Made by a program: the position numbers and the translations under genes. Below, piece after piece: positions 4,665 to 12,368 of a stretch of 64,000 nucleotides of DNA (position 1 is its first letter; the number at the start of each line of letters is the position of its first letter). The DNA comes from an uncultured Planctomycetia bacterium (GTDB taxonomy: Bacteria > Omnitrophota > Gorgyraeia > Duberdicusellales > 4484-171), in the NCBI GenBank assembly GCA_964536865.1, contig CAZHYN010000002.1:608-64607 (forward strand), read 5' to 3'. The notes under the pieces are model-generated. The model saw only the letters and a list, made by a program, of their open reading frames with translations, was not told the DNA's origin and made no database searches.

Positions 4665-6392
4665 TTAAGAAAGGTAGGCAGGGAAAGTAATTGTGAATTC
4701 TGTTCCTTTGTCAGGTATGCTTTTTACATCTATTCTTCCATTGTGTAAAAGCACGATGTGTTTGACAATGGAAAGTCCCAAGCCTGTGCCACCAAGTTTT
4801 TTAGAACGGGATTTATCTACTACATAAAATCTTTCAAATATCCTGTCAAGATGCTCTTCTGGTATTCCGATACCTGTGTCTTTTACCTTAACAATTATTT
4901 CTTTATCAGTTCTTTTTAACAAAATACTAATTTCTCCCTTTTCTGTATATTTAATAGCATTGTCTATCAAATTTATAAACATCTGCTCCAATTTAAAAGG
5001 GTCTCCTTTGATTACAGGCTTGCTTTCACATATTAAATTTAATTTTAAATTTTTTTCTTTTGCTTTCTGCTCAAATATTTTACATACATTTTCTGCCATC
5101 TCTTCCAAATTCATCTTTTCTTTTATCTGGGTTAATCCCTTCTCTTCCAATTCTGAAAGTAAAAGTAAATCACTGACAATATTTATAAGGCGTTCGGTAT
5201 GTTTTTTGATAATATCTAAATAGTGTTTTGAGCTACCTTTTATCTCCTCTTCTAAAGTCTCGACATATCCTTTTATAGCTGTTAAAGGAGTTCTTAATTC
5301 ATGAGAAACATTTACCACAAAGTCTTTCTTTATTTTTTCCAGTTTCCTAAATTCAGTAATATCATGCAAAACAATTATTAACTCTTCTTTAGAAGGCACA
5401 AAAACAAAACTGCACAGGAATACTTTTTCGTTCAACTCTAACTCTTGAGAAGAGATTCTTTTCTCTTCTTTTGCCTTCTCTATCAATTGAGCTATAGTGG
5501 GATTCCTTAAAACCTCCCACCAGAATTTTCCCTCAGGATTTATTTGAACAATTTTTTTAAAACTTTCATTAAAAAGAATAATCCTGCCTTTTTTATCTAA
5601 AACCAAAAGCCCTTCTTCAAGGGAAGTGATAATACTATTTAATTCTTCTTGTTTTAAGGTTAAGTTATCAAATAGACGCTTTAGTTCTTCAGACATTCTA
5701 TTGAAACTTTCTGCCAGTTCTCCTATTTCACCCTTTCTTTTAAAACTTACTCTTGCAGAAAAATCGCCATCAGCTAATTTTTTAGATGCTGAAACTAACT
5801 CTTTTAAAGGATAAGACAAATTCTTTGAAAAAAAGAAAGCCCCTAATAGAGAAAGAAAAGTCATAAAAATTACTATCCCAAAGATTCTGTTTTTTAAGTT
5901 ATTAAGCAATTTATTTATATCTTTCAAAAACAGGCTCACCCTCAAAACACCTAAAAACTTTTCTTTTGATTTAACAGGTATTGCCACATATAGCATCTCT
6001 TCTTTTACTGTAGTGCTAAAGCGTAAAGATTTGCCAAGACCTTTTATTTTAGCTTGCTTAACTTCCGGCCTATCATTGTGGTTTTCCATAAGATGTGGGT
6101 CTTTTTCGGAATCTGCTAAAACTTTTCCTGAAGGAGCAATAATTGTAATTCTTGTTTTTATATTTTTGCCTATTTCTTTTACTAAGGAATCTAATCTTTT
6201 GAAATCTTTTTCTTCTATAAGAGGTAATACTTTAAGTTTAAGTGTGTAGGCTAAATTTTTAAGGCCTAAAGACAGGGTATTTATGTAATGAGACCTTATT
6301 GTTCTAAAAGAAAAGGAAAATATCAATATTGAAAGCAATAAAATAATCAAACAGAAGCTAAAAAAAAATTTAAAGAACAGAGAGTGCTTCAT
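4665..6392 (-). CDS. phoR: phosphate regulon sensor histidine kinase PhoR-like
   Basis: 575 aa. It has N-terminal transmembrane segments, a HAMP/PAS-like segment, an HisKA H-box (SHELRTPLTAIKGY) and HATPase_c motifs (NLIDNAIKYT, DTGIGIP, GGTGLGLSIV). It overlaps the phoB stop. Confidence 0.8.
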   Translation of the reverse strand: MKHSLFFKFFFSFCLIILLLSILIFSFSFRTIRSHYINTLSLGLKNLAYTLKLKVLPLIEEKDFKRLDSLVKEIGKNIKTRITIIAPSGKVLADSEKDPHLMENHNDRPEVKQAKIKGLGKSLRFSTTVKEEMLYVAIPVKSKEKFLGVLRVSLFLKDINKLLNNLKNRIFGIVIFMTFLSLLGAFFFSKNLSYPLKELVSASKKLADGDFSARVSFKRKGEIGELAESFNRMSEELKRLFDNLTLKQEELNSIITSLEEGLLVLDKKGRIILFNESFKKIVQINPEGKFWWEVLRNPTIAQLIEKAKEEKRISSQELELNEKVFLCSFVFVPSKEELIIVLHDITEFRKLEKIKKDFVVNVSHELRTPLTAIKGYVETLEEEIKGSSKHYLDIIKKHTERLINIVSDLLLLSELEEKGLTQIKEKMNLEEMAENVCKIFEQKAKEKNLKLNLICESKPVIKGDPFKLEQMFINLIDNAIKYTEKGEISILLKRTDKEIIVKVKDTGIGIPEEHLDRIFERFYVVDKSRSKKLGGTGLGLSIVKHIVLLHNGRIDVKSIPDKGTEFTITFPAYLS

Positions 6393-7066
6393 TCTTCTAT
6401 TTTGTAACCTATACCTCTTACATTTTTAATAAATTTTGAAGCTTTGCCTAACTTTTCTCTTAAATTTTTAATATGGACATCTATGGTTCTGTCCAAAACC
6501 GCTTTATCATGTCCCCATAAATGGTTTAGAATCTGGTCTCTTGTAAATACCCAGCCTTTTTTAGAAGCCAAGATTTTTAAAATTCTGAATTCAGTTGGGG
6601 TTAAATCTATTTTTTTATTTTCTACAAAGACCTGGAATTTATTAAGATCTATTAAGAGAATATCGCCTATTTTGATCTTTTTGCCAGAATCTTGTGTTTT
6701 TCTTCTTAAAACTGCTTTTACCCTGGCAACTAATTCTCTTGGGGAAAAAGGTTTTGTTACATAATCGTCTGCTCCTAACTCTAAACCTAAAACTTTATCT
6801 GCTTCATCAGCACGAGCAGTAAGCATAATAACAGGAATAAATTTAAAATCCTCTTTTGATTTTAAATATTTGCAAATTTCAATACCATCTGAATCGGGAA
6901 GCATAAGGTCTAAGATTATAAGGTCAGGCATTTTGGAAGATAAGAATTTAAAGAAGCTTTCTGCATTTAGGAATTCTTTAACTTTAAAACCAGATTTAGT
7001 AAGGTGCAAAGATACAAGCTCTAAAATATCAGGTTCATCATCTATTACTGCTATCAATTCATTCAT
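6389..7066 (-). CDS. phoB: OmpR/PhoB-family response regulator
   Basis: 225 aa. It has a receiver domain (VIDDEPDILEL..LDLMLPDSDG) and a C-terminal winged-helix domain (LTPTEFRILKIL...RTIDVHIKNLREKL). Confidence 0.85.
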   Translation of the reverse strand: MNELIAVIDDEPDILELVSLHLTKSGFKVKEFLNAESFFKFLSSKMPDLIILDLMLPDSDGIEICKYLKSKEDFKFIPVIMLTARADEADKVLGLELGADDYVTKPFSPRELVARVKAVLRRKTQDSGKKIKIGDILLIDLNKFQVFVENKKIDLTPTEFRILKILASKKGWVFTRDQILNHLWGHDKAVLDRTIDVHIKNLREKLGKASKFIKNVRGIGYKIEE

Positions 7067-7111
7067 CTTTTGAAGTTAAAATCATTCCATATAAAAATTC
7101 AAACAATTTTT

Positions 7112-7139
7112 GATAACATCATATAATTTTAGATAACAT
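7112..7139. promoter_or_regulatory. candidate operator: direct repeat GATAACAT x2 with 20-bp periodicity, 45-70 bp upstream of phoB
   Basis: GATAACAT occurs at 7112-7119 and 7132-7139. The copies are on the same helical face and flank a TATAAT-like hexamer (7123-7128). Location only; the site is weakly Pho-box-like. Confidence 0.25.
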
Positions 7140-7254
7140 TTGTCAATCTCGCGTTCCTTAGAACGCATAGCCGATTTATCCACAAACATTTGTGAAGATG
7201 TAATATTCATAACAGAAGGCAAAATTATAAAACATCACAAAGATGAAAGTTAAG

Positions 7255-7700
7255 GTGATGGGCGGGGATAGGTTTCTTTTTGTTCCGATGGCAATCTGGA
7301 ACATAGGCTAATATAGACAGGTGCTTGAGGAGGGGTTTTGTTAACCTTACCTATTCTTTAAAATATTTCTCTTAAAAGATTTAAAATTGGTAAGCCAGTC
7401 AGCAAAAAAATAAAAATTTCTATTTTCCCTATTCTTTAATTACAAAAATTCTTTTCTGCCGAAAGGCAGACAAACCCCTATATAAGATGAGTTTTTAAGA
7501 GAAGATTCTTTTAATTAAAGCCTCCTCAAAGCAAGTGCTTGAGGAAGCTATCCAAAAGGGAAACAAACTTCCCGACGAAATGTCGGGATAAACTCCGCGC
7601 AGAAGTCCGCCTGTCCCGATGAGCAATAGCGACATCGGGAAGCACCGACTTGTCCGCCTCTGGAGGAGACTGCGGGGTGGGTGGGGAATTAAATCCTTTT
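7255..7700. ncRNA. GC-rich structured-RNA-like island of unknown class
   Basis: The island has local GC content far above the surrounding sequence. Hairpins are CCCGACGAAATGTCGGG (7571-7587), CCCGATG..CATCGGG (7615-7639) and a GAAA-tetraloop hairpin TCTGCCGAAAGGCAGA (about 7455-7470). There is long-range complementarity between TTGAGGAGG (about 7325) and CCTCCTCAA (about 7521). No conserved motif of RNase P, tmRNA, SRP or 6S RNA was recognised. Confidence 0.35.
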
Positions 7701-8099
7701 TACTTAATATTCTTTTTCTTACATTTATGGATTGTGTTAGGCAGGATTATTGGGATGATAAAGGTTGGTTCTTCTTCAGATGGGGAGCCATTATTATTAC
7801 TACAAACTAAGTTTTTGGGACTTTCTGAATATAAATCTCTCTTTAAATTATTCCATTCCCACTCATCCCAACTATTTAAATCAGAAGAATCTTGAAGTGT
7901 AAAATTCCTTGAAAAATAAAGATTTATCTGGATGTTTTCTTTTGAGTAGATTATTTCTTTGATGAATTTTTTAATGAAAAGATTCTTTTCAATTCCTTTC
8001 TTTTGAGGGAGGGTTTTTTAATACCAATTTTGTTAATAATGCATAAACTAATGCAAGAAGCTTTTATTAAGTTAAGGGGGTGTCTACAGTGATTTTAAG

Positions 8100-8372
8100 C
8101 TAAATCTTTCCCAGAAACATCAATATCCCTATTATCACAAAGAGTATCGCACCAGCATACCGTATTAGTTCTGGTTTAAGATACTCCCCTAGAGCCGCTC
8201 CAATCAAAACTGAAAGAGCTGTTACTACCATATATGCAGAAACCGAACCTAGCCATACAGCGAAGGGCTTACCTGATTTTGCAGACATACCTATTCCAAC
8301 TAATTGAGTTTTATCGGCAAGTTCTGCCAAAAATATTGCTCCAAATGTTACTAGGAATATTTTCCAATACAT
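8100..8372 (-). CDS. UPF0016 (GDT1/TMEM165/MneA-like) family membrane protein, single-domain half-size form
   Basis: 90 aa with 3 predicted transmembrane segments. The family signature E-x-G-D-K-T is present as ELADKTQ in the first transmembrane segment. Confidence 0.7.
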   Translation of the reverse strand: MYWKIFLVTFGAIFLAELADKTQLVGIGMSAKSGKPFAVWLGSVSAYMVVTALSVLIGAALGEYLKPELIRYAGAILFVIIGILMFLGKI

Positions 8373-8469
8373 TAAACCCTCATTGTTTTTCTTTGCTTAA
8401 AAACTCATTCCGTCGATAAATTCAAAATAGTAAGTGACTAAATTACCCGATAGATTTAGTGGTAGTCTC

Positions 8470-9147
8470 TTATCGGCCTCTACCTCTACCTCCAACGGGC
8501 ACCCCTTTAGATCTCCCCACACCTTCTGGCTTGCCAACTCCTTCAGGCTTACCTATACCTTCTGGTTTGCCTATGCCTTCAGGTATACCGATTCCTTTTG
8601 GTATTCCTATTCCTTCTAGCTTGCCAGTAGGGAGTTCACCTCTTTGAATTTTTCTCAAGATACCTAAGGCAGTATTTCTTCCTGTCTTGGATACTTCTAT
8701 TGCATGTCTAATAGCAGACCGTGCTTCTTTGGGGACTTTACCCACAAGATCGCTTAAGACTTCAATATGTTTCTTAGTAGACCTCTCAACTGCTTCTAAG
8801 GCTTCACTTACATCATATCCCTGCGCTTGAGCTTTGTTAATCTGTTCCATTGCTCCATTAATATACTTTTCATAGTCTTTTAAGAGATCATTTACAAACT
8901 CAGGCTTGCCTTTAGAAATCATCGCTTTTACTTCCTTTAATCTTTCTTTGGCGTACTTTGTGTAAAGGTTAGCCTTCTCTAATGGATCAAGTGCAGCCTT
9001 TAATTTTGCTGCCTCCATTTGCCGTTTTGCTTGATAGAGTGGATCATCAGGCAATGTCTCTGGCTCATTTTGAGCAAAGGCTATGCTTGCCAAGAATACA
9101 CATATAAGTGTCAATAGCCACATTCTAACGCTTCGCATTTTCCACAC
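8470..9147 (-). CDS. secreted alpha-helical protein with a C-terminal tandem hexapeptide (G-I/V-G-K/I-P-E) repeat tail
   Basis: 225 aa with a signal peptide (MWKMRSVRMWLLTLICVFLASIAFA) and a helical charged body. The C-terminus reads GIGIPKGIGIPEGIGKPEGIGKPEGVGKPEGVG..GRGRGR. Confidence 0.55.
   Translation of the reverse strand: MWKMRSVRMWLLTLICVFLASIAFAQNEPETLPDDPLYQAKRQMEAAKLKAALDPLEKANLYTKYAKERLKEVKAMISKGKPEFVNDLLKDYEKYINGAMEQINKAQAQGYDVSEALEAVERSTKKHIEVLSDLVGKVPKEARSAIRHAIEVSKTGRNTALGILRKIQRGELPTGKLEGIGIPKGIGIPEGIGKPEGIGKPEGVGKPEGVGRSKGVPVGGRGRGR
8521..8634. repeat. tandem approximately 18-bp repeats (about 6 units) that encode the hexapeptide repeats of the 8470..9147 CDS
   Basis: The plus strand reads ACCTTCTGGCTTGCCAAC / TCCTTCAGGCTTACCTAT / ACCTTCTGGTTTGCCTAT / GCCTTCAGGTATACCGAT / TCCTTTTGGTATTCCTAT / TCCTTCTAGCTTGCCAGT. 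Confidence 0.7.
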
Positions 9148-9608: not shown

Positions 9609-11192
9609 ATGGATTTTAACAAAGAGGAGGCTAAAATGCAAGAAAAATTAAGATGTGCAATTTATACAAGGGTAAGTACGGATAATCAAGCAGAAGTTGA
9701 GTTTAACTCTTGTGAGGCTCAAGAAGAAAAGATAAGAGCATTTATTAAAAGTCAAGAAAATATGATAATTTATAAAGTTTACTCTGATGCTGGGTCCACA
9801 GGAGTAAATCTTAATAGACCTGCTTTACAGAAATTACTTGAGGATATAAAACAAGGCAACATTAACATTGTTTTGGTTTACAAAATTGACAGACTTACCC
9901 GTTCTCCTAAAGATTTCTACTACTTAATGGAGATTTTTGAGAAATACAAAGTTGATTTTATCTCAATCACAGAAAGATTTGATACCTCTACTCCAGCAGG
10001 AAGACTTTTAAGAAACATAATGCTTACCTTTGCTCAGTTTGAAAGAGAGTTAGCAAGTGAGAGAACAAAAGATAAGATGCTTCAGAGAGCAGAAAAAGGG
10101 TTATGGAATGGCGGTATTTCTCCATTTGGATACAAGACATTAAATAAGAAACTTGTTCCTCATGAGCAGGAAGCTAAAGTTGTTAAGTTAATATTTGAAA
10201 CTTATGTTGATACTGGGTCTATAGCAGAGGTTTATAACACCCTGAAAGAGAAAAATATTTTAAATAGGCATGGCAAAGTTTTTACCAAATCAAGTATTAA
10301 AAATATCCTCTCTAATCCTGTCTATATCGGGAAGTTAAAATATGCTGGGAAAATTTATAATGGACTACATCAGCCTATAATTAGTGAACTTCTCTTCAAC
10401 GAAGCTCAGGAACTGCACAAAAAGAAAATCAGGGAAATGAAACTCTTTAGAAATTATCTTTTTGCAGGTTTAATCACTTGTGAGGAATGCAGATCAAAAA
10501 TGACGCCAACCTATACAAACAAAAAAGCAAAAAGAGGAAGAAAGAGATATTTTTATTATAGATGCACCTCTACCCTAAAAAGAGACTGGCAGGTATGCAC
10601 TACAAAACAGGTAAACGCTGATAGGCTGGAAAGATTTGTTTTAGAAAATTTAGAAAGAGTATCAAAAGATGAGCCTTATATTGAAAATCTTTGTTTTAAA
10701 CTTAACCACAATCCAGATGAGTTAGTTCGAAATTCTCTTATAAAAAATAAGGTATCGGGCGACCGGGCTGGATTCGAACTAAGCAGGGAGCAATTGAAAA
10801 TTGAGCCTAAAGGTTTAATTTTCCAACTTAAAACCTTCCTTAACACTCTCTCCTCCCTCTCCCGAGCCGAGCAGGTTCTTTTAATAAAAGAAAAAATTGA
10901 CTCAATAAAATATTCCAAAAAAAGAATCAGGGTAAACTTCAAATATTCCTTAAAAATCAACAACTTAAACCCCTCTCAACAAGGTTCTGGTCAGGTGGGG
11001 GTGGGTGGTGGGAGTTTAGAGAAAGAAAATCAAAATATCCCTTCCTTTTATTCTTCCGATTTAGTTCGAAAAGAAATAATGGCTCCCCGGGCAGGGCTCG
11101 AACCTGCGACCCGCTGGTTACACCTAATCCCTGAGTTTCCCCAGAGGGTGGACTATCTCTTCACCATATTCCGACGTAATGTCGGAACTTAG
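9609..11192 (+). CDS. large serine recombinase (resolvase domain, recombinase domain, zinc ribbon and coiled-coil); integrase-type
   Basis: The N-terminal catalytic motif is AIYTRVSTDNQ, followed by DRLTRS and the recombinase-domain motifs GISPFGY, NPVYIG and HQPIIS. A Cys cluster CEECRSK..YYYRCTS..C is present. The last roughly 37 codons are antisense to the tRNA and intron, so the true C-terminus may lie a little upstream. Confidence 0.8.
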   Translation: MDFNKEEAKMQEKLRCAIYTRVSTDNQAEVEFNSCEAQEEKIRAFIKSQENMIIYKVYSDAGSTGVNLNRPALQKLLEDIKQGNINIVLVYKIDRLTRSPKDFYYLMEIFEKYKVDFISITERFDTSTPAGRLLRNIMLTFAQFERELASERTKDKMLQRAEKGLWNGGISPFGYKTLNKKLVPHEQEAKVVKLIFETYVDTGSIAEVYNTLKEKNILNRHGKVFTKSSIKNILSNPVYIGKLKYAGKIYNGLHQPIISELLFNEAQELHKKKIREMKLFRNYLFAGLITCEECRSKMTPTYTNKKAKRGRKRYFYYRCTSTLKRDWQVCTTKQVNADRLERFVLENLERVSKDEPYIENLCFKLNHNPDELVRNSLIKNKVSGDRAGFELSREQLKIEPKGLIFQLKTFLNTLSSLSRAEQVLLIKEKIDSIKYSKKRIRVNFKYSLKINNLNPSQQGSGQVGVGGGSLEKENQNIPSFYSSDLVRKEIMAPRAGLEPATRWLHLIPEFPQRVDYLFTIFRRNVGT

Positions 11193-11415
11193 GTGCCGGG
11201 CGCTTCCCCCGATATAACATCGGGGTACTCCCTTTTCGGGATAGTCTCTGCACCTTCCCCGACGTTCCGTCGGGGCTTGGCTCAGGGTTACCATCCCTGA
11301 ACTACAAGAAGTTCAGAGTACAGGCTTCCCTGAATTCACCCGGTTTTTCATCCCGATGTTTCCATCGGGAGCTGCTCTTCACAGCCAGCTGCTCTACCTG
11401 CTGAGCTACCGGGGA
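11080..11415 (-). tRNA. tRNA-Asn(GUU) interrupted by a 260-nt group I intron (exons 11381..11415 and 11080..11120)
   Basis: The exons join to a canonical 76-nt tRNA. The acceptor stem is TCCCCGG/CCGGGGA and the D-arm is GCTC-AGCAGGTA-GAGC. The anticodon stem is GCTGG/CCAGC with loop CU-GUU-AA. The T-arm is GCAGG-TTCGAGC-CCTGC, the discriminator is G and CCA is encoded. The intron lies between positions 35 and 36, after a U as group I splicing requires. Confidence 0.75.
11121..11380 (-). ncRNA. group I self-splicing intron within the tRNA-Asn anticodon loop
   Basis: The P7 core elements are R = CAGAGACUA (plus coordinates 11242-11250) and S = AAGAGAUAGUCC (11150-11161). P1 forms from the exon GGCUGU and the IGS GCAGCU with a U-G at the splice site and loop GAAGA. 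The intron ends in omega-G (complement of 11121). Several GC-rich peripheral hairpins are present. There is no internal ORF. Confidence 0.7.
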
Positions 11416-11652
11416 AGTTATTTTATCTAAGAACTTTCTTCCCTGACCTGATTTAAGAAAACGTTCTCTTTGTCTAGCTTCTTTCACACAAACAAACTCT
11501 TCATAATACACTAAATCAAATGGACCATTCTGCCTAGTCCACTGATTGGAACCTGAATTATGCTCTTTTAGACGCACTTCAACTCTTTTCGAAGTACAAC
11601 CTATATACCTCTTACCATTACGTCTACTTTTTAATACATAAACTATAGCCAT
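11302..11652 (-). CDS. GIY-YIG nuclease superfamily protein (small, YhbQ/Slx1-like catalytic domain only); the ORF reads through into the tRNA
   Basis: The N-terminal 75 aa (MAIVYVLKSRRNGKRYIGCTSKRVEVRLKEHNSG...) carry the GIY-YIG motifs (VYVL..GKRYIG, R..EH, E). The last roughly 38 codons (11302-11415) coincide with the tRNA 5' exon and intron start, so the effective protein is probably about 75-80 aa (11428..11652). Confidence 0.65.
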   Translation of the reverse strand: MAIVYVLKSRRNGKRYIGCTSKRVEVRLKEHNSGSNQWTRQNGPFDLVYYEEFVCVKEARQRERFLKSGQGRKFLDKITSPVAQQVEQLAVKSSSRWKHRDEKPGEFREACTLNFL

Positions 11653-11664
11653 CTTTCTATCTTA

Positions 11665-11790
11665 TTACAGCCCTCGCCTGAGGCGAGTTCGCCTTCGGCG
11701 AAAGCTGCTCCCTGTCTACCAGCAGGTAGGTACCTGCTTAAGCTTCCGCCTGAGGCGGATCAGCCTCTGGCTGAACCGGGGAATAAGTTA
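11665..11790. repeat. cluster of four GC-rich hairpins, with a 9-mer shared with the tRNA 5' end
   Basis: The hairpins are CTCGCCTGAGGCGAG (11673-11687), TTCGCCTTCGGCGAA (11688-11702, UUCG loop), AGCAGGTAGGTACCTGCT (11721-11738) and CCGCCTGAGGCGG (11746-11758). ACCGGGGAA..GTTA at 11775-11790 echoes the tRNA 5' end at 11407-11420. Confidence 0.4.
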
Positions 11791-12368
11791 ATTTACAAAG
11801 AGCTCATCTCTTCCAATTTTGCATACTCATTATACAACCATTGTTCTAATTTATCAACTATATTGTTACTTATCAGAAAGTAGTTATCTTTAACTTTATG
11901 AATAGCAAACGAAGCTTATTTTACCTGGACATTCCCAAAAAATAACCCTGAATTTCTCTAACGCGCTATAATCCAGTGAGTTAAGAAAATTAAAATCTGA
12001 TTAGCTGCAAAGGTGAAATTTTAGGTTAAACCCGGATTTTGCATTAGCAAAATCCGCCCCAAGGGCAGCCCTTTATTCTTCATAAGAAGAAATTCATTCG
12101 TAGAAATAAAGAGCTGGGTTAACCCAGCCCTTTCAAAAGAAAGGGCTTCTCCTTTTTAGACAAATTTTTCCCCGCCTGCTAAAAGTATATGTAAGTATCG
12201 GCGGGCAGGTAATGAAAAATTTGGGTTAAAAAATGAGCAAAGACTTCCCCAAAATTTTGGAAATCTAATGTTTTCAATGCTCTTTTAAGGTGAGAAATCC
12301 CGTTGTAAATTATCCATTTCATAGACAGGAAAACTCCAGGTTTTACAAATTGAAAGTTTATCAATAAG

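Follow-up and report, generated by a model that had tools for sequence, protein, structure and literature searches.

A GC-rich hairpin element beside phoB as a candidate relic of an intron-containing tRNA-Asn(GUU) gene

GC-rich hairpins between two genes of an AT-rich genome raise the question of whether they belong to a working RNA gene, to a family of repeats or to the remains of something older. Such hairpins are found between phoB (6389-7066, minus strand) and the GDT1/UPF0016 gene (8100-8372, minus strand) of the window, the name used here for the whole stretch of 64,000 nucleotides that was analysed. The sequence-only reading of this intergenic gap, whose limits were confirmed, had considered the remains of a second group I intron or of the RNA hosting it, an unrelated structured RNA, and a member of a dispersed hairpin family. 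Here, the composition, the native context and the resemblances of the element are examined.

Composition and layout of the element

The gap had been described as holding one stretch of about 450 nt with strong local GC enrichment. The enrichment is real, since the mean GC fraction of the window is 0.36 and the peak at 7520-7715 reaches 0.66, the maximum of the window. However, it is two-lobed rather than continuous: GC is 0.44 at 7250-7349 and only 0.21 in the middle (7350-7449), so that the island consists of two GC-rich lobes flanking an AT-rich core. Another GC island, of up to 59%, was observed at 8441-8596, within a DUF5667 ORF (8470-9147, minus strand).

A direct check of the window letters found all the quoted sequences in place. 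The hairpins CCCGACGAAATGTCGGG (7571-7587) and CCCGATGAGCAATAGCGACATCGGG (7615-7639) belong to the 3' domain of the element, and the GAAA-loop hairpin TCTGCCGAAAGGCAGA (7455-7470) lies inside the AT-rich spacer. The long-range pairing of TTGAGGAGG (7326-7334) with CCTCCTCAA (7521-7529), around 186 nt of AT-rich DNA, is also present, but it is specific to the window, and relatives pair other sequence. All of this, hairpins, GC enrichment and long-range pairing alike, goes beyond chance expectation. For the pattern CCGAYG-N3-14-CRTCGG, three matches were counted versus none in 100 shuffles, and the folding z-scores of the element are -3.4 on the plus strand and -3.8 on the minus strand, both better than shuffles. 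Perfect GC-rich hairpin matches are only eight in 64 kb, some nested in one another, and all of them fall in the element, the intron described below, the leader region of a GIY-YIG gene or a terminator-like site (12113-12128) a few hundred bases from that leader.

From left to right on the plus strand, the element begins with the G-rich motif GGTGATGGGCGGGGA (7254-7268), its left boundary; similar motifs are found at 7671-7687 and 10995-11013. Directly 3' of phoU sequence there is a conserved hairpin, GUUCCGAU-GGCA-AUCuGGAAC (7282-7302), whose stem survives substitutions in three related contigs (L006, with GUUUUGAC/GUCAAAGC, L013 and L012) and whose G-U pairs point to the plus strand. The following segment, ATAGGCTAAT-ATA-GACAGGTGCT-TGAGGAGGGG (7303-7335), provides the 5' arms of long-range helices predicted by RNAalifold and pair tables. 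Then comes an AT-rich, fast-evolving spacer (7336-7530), which contains the 7455-7470 hairpin and CCTCCTCAA. Finally, the GC-rich 3' domain (7536-7683) carries the hairpins at 7570-7588 and 7615-7639, ends at G7683 and resembles the 3' half of a group I intron, from P7 to the terminal G. An invariant core of 85 nt (7568-7652) lies within this domain.

It should be noted that a direct repeat, GTGCTTGAGGAGG / GTGCTTGAGGAAG, is present at 7323-7335 and 7536-7548, and that its first copy reads CACCTGCCTTGAGGAGG in relatives. From these letters, the 5' arm of the window looks as if it had been converted by the 3' copy of the repeat, with the ancestral long-range helix destroyed.

Native context and copies in related contigs

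Related contigs (L numbers) were obtained from look-ups of the flanking proteins, one metagenome scan and one genome scan. They come from hydrothermal and sediment metagenomes, and the best-matching genomes are labelled Candidatus Omnitrophota (Guaymas) and Atrimonadaceae. In its native site (L007, L011), the element closes the pst-phoU operon, starting immediately behind the phoU stop codon, and there it is probably co-transcribed as the 3' untranslated tail. Its hairpins could act there, at most, as a barrier to 3' exonucleases.

In the window, the element keeps this native left neighbour only as a fragment (7146-7253, plus strand), which ends in ..ISRSLERIADLSTNICEDVIFITEGKIIKHHKDES with the stop codon at 7251-7253, is preceded by an in-frame stop (7134-7136) and shows 93-95% identity to the 3' end of full-length phoU in L001 and L007. 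The homology upstream of phoB stops at 7166 in L001, L002 and L003. Hence, only the last 108 nt of phoU stand before the element, fused to the phoB-upstream region at 7146-7166, which indicates that a rearrangement put the element beside phoB. The letters of the window would fit an inversion of the pho cluster as well as an inverted duplication of it.

Several observations were made around this junction. At 7126-7166, a sequence of 22-40 nt is common to the phoB-upstream and phoU-3' regions in inverted orientation. L003 carries the junction sequence twice (1-41 and 859-899), as an inverted repeat around a segment of 817 bp, and L001 runs from 11 nt outside the phoB/phoU junction to the stop codon of phoU. 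Inversion between strains, either of the entire pho cluster or of the segment concerned, is suggested by these observations.

The element, of about 430 nt, is complete in the window and in L007. In L006 it is found in another, unrelated gene context, in a contig that stops inside it. L011, identical in sequence to L090, L091 and L093, has a 19-nt deletion and broken stems; L003 keeps the 3' domain only, after a 293-nt deletion that removed 7248-7540; L013, L096 and L012 keep only a 5' stub; and in L092 the element is cut off beside transposase-like sequence, which, judged by eye, is presumably an IS element. In L095 and L097 the element is absent and a single G-rich motif, GGTGGTGGGTAGGGTAAAT, is kept after phoU; the PhoU proteins of close relatives without the element are 90-96% identical. 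Decay is independent among relatives, with damaged copies in L003, L011, L013, L092 and L096 and none in L095 and L097.

Conservation along the element is very uneven. Between the window and L007, identity is 84% in the 5' domain, about 50-60% in the AT-rich part, about 85% at the edges of the 3' domain and 100% at 7568-7652. This 85-nt core is identical in four copies (window, L003, L007 and L006), without change across at least three genomic contexts; a fifth, partial copy (L008) covers 7587-7652, and L011 has about 85% identity over the core. As for the hairpin at 7455-7470, its position is kept across copies while its stem differs (CUGCC vs CCCGAU). In addition, L092:1225-1250 and L007:3566-3591 share the same hairpin stem with the loop reverse-complemented (GAAA vs UUUU), as if the palindrome had been flipped.

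With four copies, RNAalifold gave nested long-range helices on the plus strand. The helix GACACCUGCC:GGCAGGUGUC shows a compensatory change from C-G to U-A in L011, and the window substitutes TTGAGGAGG:CCTCCTCAA for it. G-U pairs, compared with the A-C mismatches that the other strand would have, favour the plus strand roughly two to one.

The tRNA-Asn(GUU) gene, its group I intron and the element

On the minus strand of the window there is a tRNA-Asn(GUU) gene (11080-11415) with a group I intron of 260 nt (11121-11380), the functional paralogue with which the element is compared here. The Rfam search returned this known intron as its only match (Intron_gpI, 83 bits, 11129-11464, minus strand) and none on the element. 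The default mode of ARAGORN missed the gene, but the exons joined in silico give a perfect tRNA-Asn(gtt). The intron splits the anticodon between positions 35 and 36, and its stretch from P7 to P3' carries two additional hairpins that recall P7.1 and P7.2; L105 has an allele of the gene without the intron. In bacteria, tRNA genes with group I introns are known for Leu, fMet, Ile and Arg, and for this reason a group I intron in tRNA-Asn may be unusual.

Searches for known RNAs in the element were negative. Intron_gpI did not match it at the gathering threshold, nor at E values up to 10 (6900-8200 of the window; L007:3300-3800). ARAGORN detected no tRNA or tmRNA, and ARAGORN and the Rfam models gave no match for tmRNA, RNase P RNA, SRP RNA, 6S RNA or T-box; this agrees with the sequence-only reading, which had noted neither an R/S-like core nor RNase P, tmRNA or SRP motifs. 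Comparison by eye with tmRNA, RNase P P4, SRP helix 8, the T-box motif, group II domain V and the ssoA CS-6 loop yielded short resemblances only, and these candidates were rejected. An exact 22-mer scan of GTDB genomes and three scans of viral contigs found no match, and a long, spurious minus-strand reading frame had no matches in the protein database.

The hairpins of the element had been thought to resemble the antisense of two intron hairpins (11171-11185 and 11352-11369). These hairpins exist and correspond to P8 and P2 of the intron, but the alignments favour the opposite orientation. Smith-Waterman alignment of the plus strand of the element with the intron sense gave scores of 56 (window) and 61 (L007), versus 30+-5.5 for dinucleotide shuffles and only 36-37 in antisense orientation. 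The apparent antisense resemblance is explained by the palindromic stems of the hairpins; in fact, the 7571-7587 hairpin is closest, in sense, to the intron hairpin CCCGACGGAACGUCGGG (11274-11258, minus strand). The score of the element was reached by 0/300, 0/200 and 2/500 shuffles (p about 0.002-0.004). Moreover, the intron was the top non-self match of the element among 11,386 sequence windows (about 870 kb), and in the reciprocal search the top matches of the intron 3' half were all copies of the element.

Covariance models pointed in the same direction. With a model built from the element (R1), the intron was the best non-self match (13 bits, E 3.1). With a model built from the single sequence of the intron 3' half (R2; P7, P7.1, P7.2, P8 and P9), the best non-self match was 7539-7683 on the plus strand (14.9 bits, E 0.14), which spans the whole model and ends with G7683 opposite the terminal G of the intron; a chance match to R2 reached 12.5 bits, and for the covariance models the noise matches lie only 2 bits lower. 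Similarly, nhmmer gave E values of 2.2 and 2.6 between element and intron, and chance Smith-Waterman scores of 50-54 occur in GC-rich coding DNA. Each single score is thus near noise and none would be significant in a blind search; they carry weight because the target had been named beforehand and the context agrees. The mapping helix by helix is ambiguous, as the alignments differ in which hairpins they match. Two further comparisons were discarded: an alignment of the whole locus with cheap gaps was uninformative, the antisense control being equally high, and L025, with a high score against the intron 5' half, turned out to be a histidine-kinase coding region.

Regarding the flanks, 7303-7335 weakly resembles the tRNA-Asn 5' exon, the 5' splice site and the intron start (..CAGCTGGCTGT, followed across the splice site by GAAGAG), with p about 0.01-0.2, which is not significant. 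About 100 nt downstream of the element, GGGGAGCCATTAT (7787-7799) reproduces the tRNA-Asn 3' end and four bases of its flank without a mismatch over 13 nt. Together with a diverged downstream flank that includes a C-rich motif, this remnant occupies 7787-7872 on the plus strand, in the same orientation as the element, and its alignment with 11091-10990 (minus strand) has a Smith-Waterman score of 41 versus 26.8+-4.5 (reached by 5/500 shuffles, p about 0.01). Of the 3' exon, nothing beyond its last 7-9 nt was found in the spacer. After the element, L003 and L011 continue with GGGGAGC fused to a GIY-YIG cassette, and L105 has the same GGGGAGC/GIY-YIG junction behind an intact tRNA-Asn, which argues that tRNA-Asn once stood at the element's place.

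Among the origins first considered, that of a relic, whether of a second group I intron or of the RNA hosting it, is therefore the best supported, given the colinear similarity, the covariance model and the tRNA remnant, although on the plus strand and not on the minus strand as had been supposed. The preferred reading, in which confidence and doubt weigh about the same, is that the island is a decayed second copy, on the plus strand, of the intron-containing tRNA-Asn(GUU) gene, in a recombination-prone spot, and not a working intron. In this process, a copy of the tRNA-Asn(GUU)::intron locus would have decayed while its GC-rich helices survived. What is left would be a stub of the native phoU 3' flank, with the G-rich motif and the conserved hairpin, then the segment that weakly recalls a 5' exon with its splice site, an AT-rich insert that evolves fast, a domain of 150 nt colinear with the intron from P7 to the terminal G, a spacer of about 100 nt and, at the right, the last 9 nt of tRNA-Asn with its downstream flank. 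Together with the final 108 nt of phoU, the element would then have been carried by the rearrangement to a place upstream of phoB.

Splicing by the element is unlikely: the search for a P1 or guide was negative, the P7 equivalent contains a U-U mismatch, another hairpin stands in place of P8, and no host gene is present. Inspection revealed no P1 guide sequence complementary to about 7250-7270; a P1-like role is conceivable for the 10-bp helix GACACCUGCC:GGCAGGUGUC of L006, L007 and L011, whose pairing is broken in the window. A catalytic core was not recognised: the P7 equivalent pairs only three to four of its five positions, with a central U-U in every copy, and in the covariance-model alignment a 39-nt insert takes the place of the intron's P8, the mapping of P4-P6 being ambiguous. 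The correspondence of G7683 to the last G of the intron comes from alignment only (Smith-Waterman and covariance model). In addition, no gene could be restored by splicing: the flanks are the phoU stop codon and an AT-rich spacer, and 9-13 nt of the tRNA-Asn 3' end are left. A full group I fold, with P2 at 7282-7302, P3 as AUAGGCUGAC:GUCCGCCUGU and P4 as the long-range helix, was tried and rejected; its topology is right, but the substitutions are too few and a second alignment maps the hairpins otherwise.

Compared with bacterial tRNA group I introns (RF00028), the element shares with the intron 3' half the order of its segments between P7 and the terminal G, a pair of hairpins separating P7 from P3' in the manner of P7.1/P7.2, GNRA loops and A-rich joiners, and a 3' end ..GGGUG opposite ..AGGUG of the intron. 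It differs from them in the features of P1, P7 and P8 just mentioned, in having no Rfam match, in an AT-rich insert of about 190 nt and in flanks that are not the exons of a working gene. The element is also comparable to tRNA pseudogenes and to the tRNA remnants that integrated elements leave at their ends: mobile-element genes (serine recombinase, GIY-YIG cassettes) adjoin an exact remnant of the tRNA 3' end and its flank, and gene content varies between strains. Unlike those remnants, this one would include most of an intron, and it is inverted with respect to the intact tRNA.

The mobile-element genes of this region show some features of their own. The large serine recombinase ORF (9609-11192, plus strand; Resolvase, Recombinase and Zn_ribbon_recom domains in Pfam) reads through the G-rich motif at 10995-11013 and overlaps the tRNA-Asn 3' exon on the opposite strand; truncated homologues are found beside phoB in L002 and L003 and beside phoU in L007 and L092. 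At L007:1295-1310, a 9-nt remnant of the tRNA-Asn 3' end (TGGCTCCCC) adjoins a fragment of the recombinase C-terminus, an arrangement that points to another old integration or deletion at tRNA-Asn. The small GIY-YIG genes (85-90 aa) form a cassette with a conserved GC-rich leader, GCGCUAAACCACGUAGGGUUUAGCG... (L098:2340-2510, L105:1-140, L003:349-436; cf. window 7787-7793), which may form a pseudoknot and matches no Rfam family. The insertion point of the cassette is precisely one C beyond the discriminator base, behind tRNA-Gln in L098-L104 and tRNA-Asn in L105, and its family is 70-80% identical across records labelled as several different phyla. A second GIY-YIG ORF of the window (11652-11302, minus strand, 116 aa as listed) runs into the tRNA-Asn 5' exon and is preceded by a GC-rich hairpin island (11660-11815, 62% GC) unlike the cassette leader in sequence.

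Alternative readings and significance of the locus

The invariant 85-nt core is not accounted for by a neutral fossil. Simple decay leaves it unexplained, and this allows for an exapted role as well as for a functional RNA of unrelated origin. The latter option stays in consideration because the scores linking the element to the intron all lie near noise (E about 2 with nhmmer, 0.14-3 with covariance models). It would be an independent, lineage-specific RNA of the plus strand, of about 430 nt or limited to the 150-nt 3' domain, with CCCGAY-type hairpins whose likeness to the intron would reflect only the reuse of GC-rich stems in an AT-rich genome, and it is considered possible but rather unlikely. 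The core is invariant while the other parts are 50-85% identical, the loops are of GNRA type, the folding z-score is -3.4 to -3.6, the copy in L006 stands in an unrelated context, and the compensatory change in GACACCUGCC:GGCAGGUGUC of L011 is accompanied by a helix of different sequence at the same place in the window. However, against this reading stand the colinear similarity to the intron together with a tRNA-Asn remnant on the same strand, as well as the many losses and truncations among relatives and the absence of the element where PhoU is 90-96% identical. Moreover, four full-length sequences offer minimal covariation, and compensation within inverted repeats can arise at the DNA level.

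The other option opened by the core is that, with the rest of the 3' domain, it is an exapted RNA derived from a group I intron and maintained by selection in this Atribacterota-like lineage, either a ribozyme without P1, like the lariat-capping ones, or a regulatory or stabilising 3' tail of pst-phoU. This is thought improbable. Lariat-capping (GIR1) ribozymes derive from group I introns, have no P1 and lie upstream of a homing-endonuclease gene, and a GIY-YIG gene or pseudogene does follow the element in L003 and L007. On the other hand, the element has no Rfam match, any catalysis by it would be hypothetical, the GIY-YIG cassette is an independent unit that is also found behind ordinary tRNAs, and the copy in the window has no endonuclease gene.

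The G-rich motifs are central to a further reading, held to be quite improbable: the neighbouring large serine recombinase would mobilise small islands, with the element as their end module or attachment-site region and these motifs as recombination sites. A target-site duplication at the motifs was considered along with it. The motifs flank the element (7254-7268, 7671-7687), with a further one at the end of the recombinase ORF (10995-11013), and the empty site of L095 and L097 retains one of them; recombinase genes or fragments occur near the element in the window, L003, L007 and L092, and contigs break inside the element. Nevertheless, the motif match at 7256 has three mismatches, a level at which chance alone would give six matches in the window. 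Neither an excised nor an alternative junction turned up, the look-up found the recombinase protein nowhere else on record, and a recombination site needs no 150 nt of stable hairpins.

The conserved block could also be read on the other strand, as a minus-strand small RNA gene running from about 7691 to 7553, with a C-rich 5' end (CCCCACCCACCCC) and intrinsic terminators, although this is judged more improbable still. A hairpin followed by a U run is seen at 7588-7570 and 7573-7558, with a strong one in L007, and the terminator scan gave four versus 1.1 expected, in both loci; the conserved block stops at the U run, and the deletion in L003 spares exactly the 7691-7553 unit. However, the alignment has no conserved promoter to the right of 7691, the counts of G-U versus A-C favour the plus strand, where the similarity to the intron also lies, and the U runs are the complement of A-rich joining segments, typical of intron-like RNAs.

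Finally, the dispersed hairpin-repeat family put forward earlier is very improbable: the element shares with REP/BIME palindromes the presence of GC-rich hairpins in intergenic DNA of an AT-rich genome, and the stem CCCGAY..RTCGGG recurs in element and intron, but the element is single-copy, 150-430 nt long and internally heterogeneous, the covariance model found nothing but the element, with no second copy of the 3' domain, in the window and 95 related loci (871 kb), perfect GC-rich hairpins are confined to a few structured islands near the intron, and the pattern matches in related loci are copies of the element or unrelated coding DNA.

If the island is indeed a decayed copy of the tRNA-Asn(GUU) gene and its intron, it would record the duplication, the carriage by mobile elements (GIY-YIG cassettes and a large serine recombinase) and the erosion of a tRNA intron together with its host gene, and it would show GC-rich helices outliving everything else in an AT-rich genome. 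The GC islands of AT-rich genomes would then not always be working RNA genes. Within this locus, the invariant 85-nt block is the sole part that may lead to something new, namely a domesticated intron fragment.
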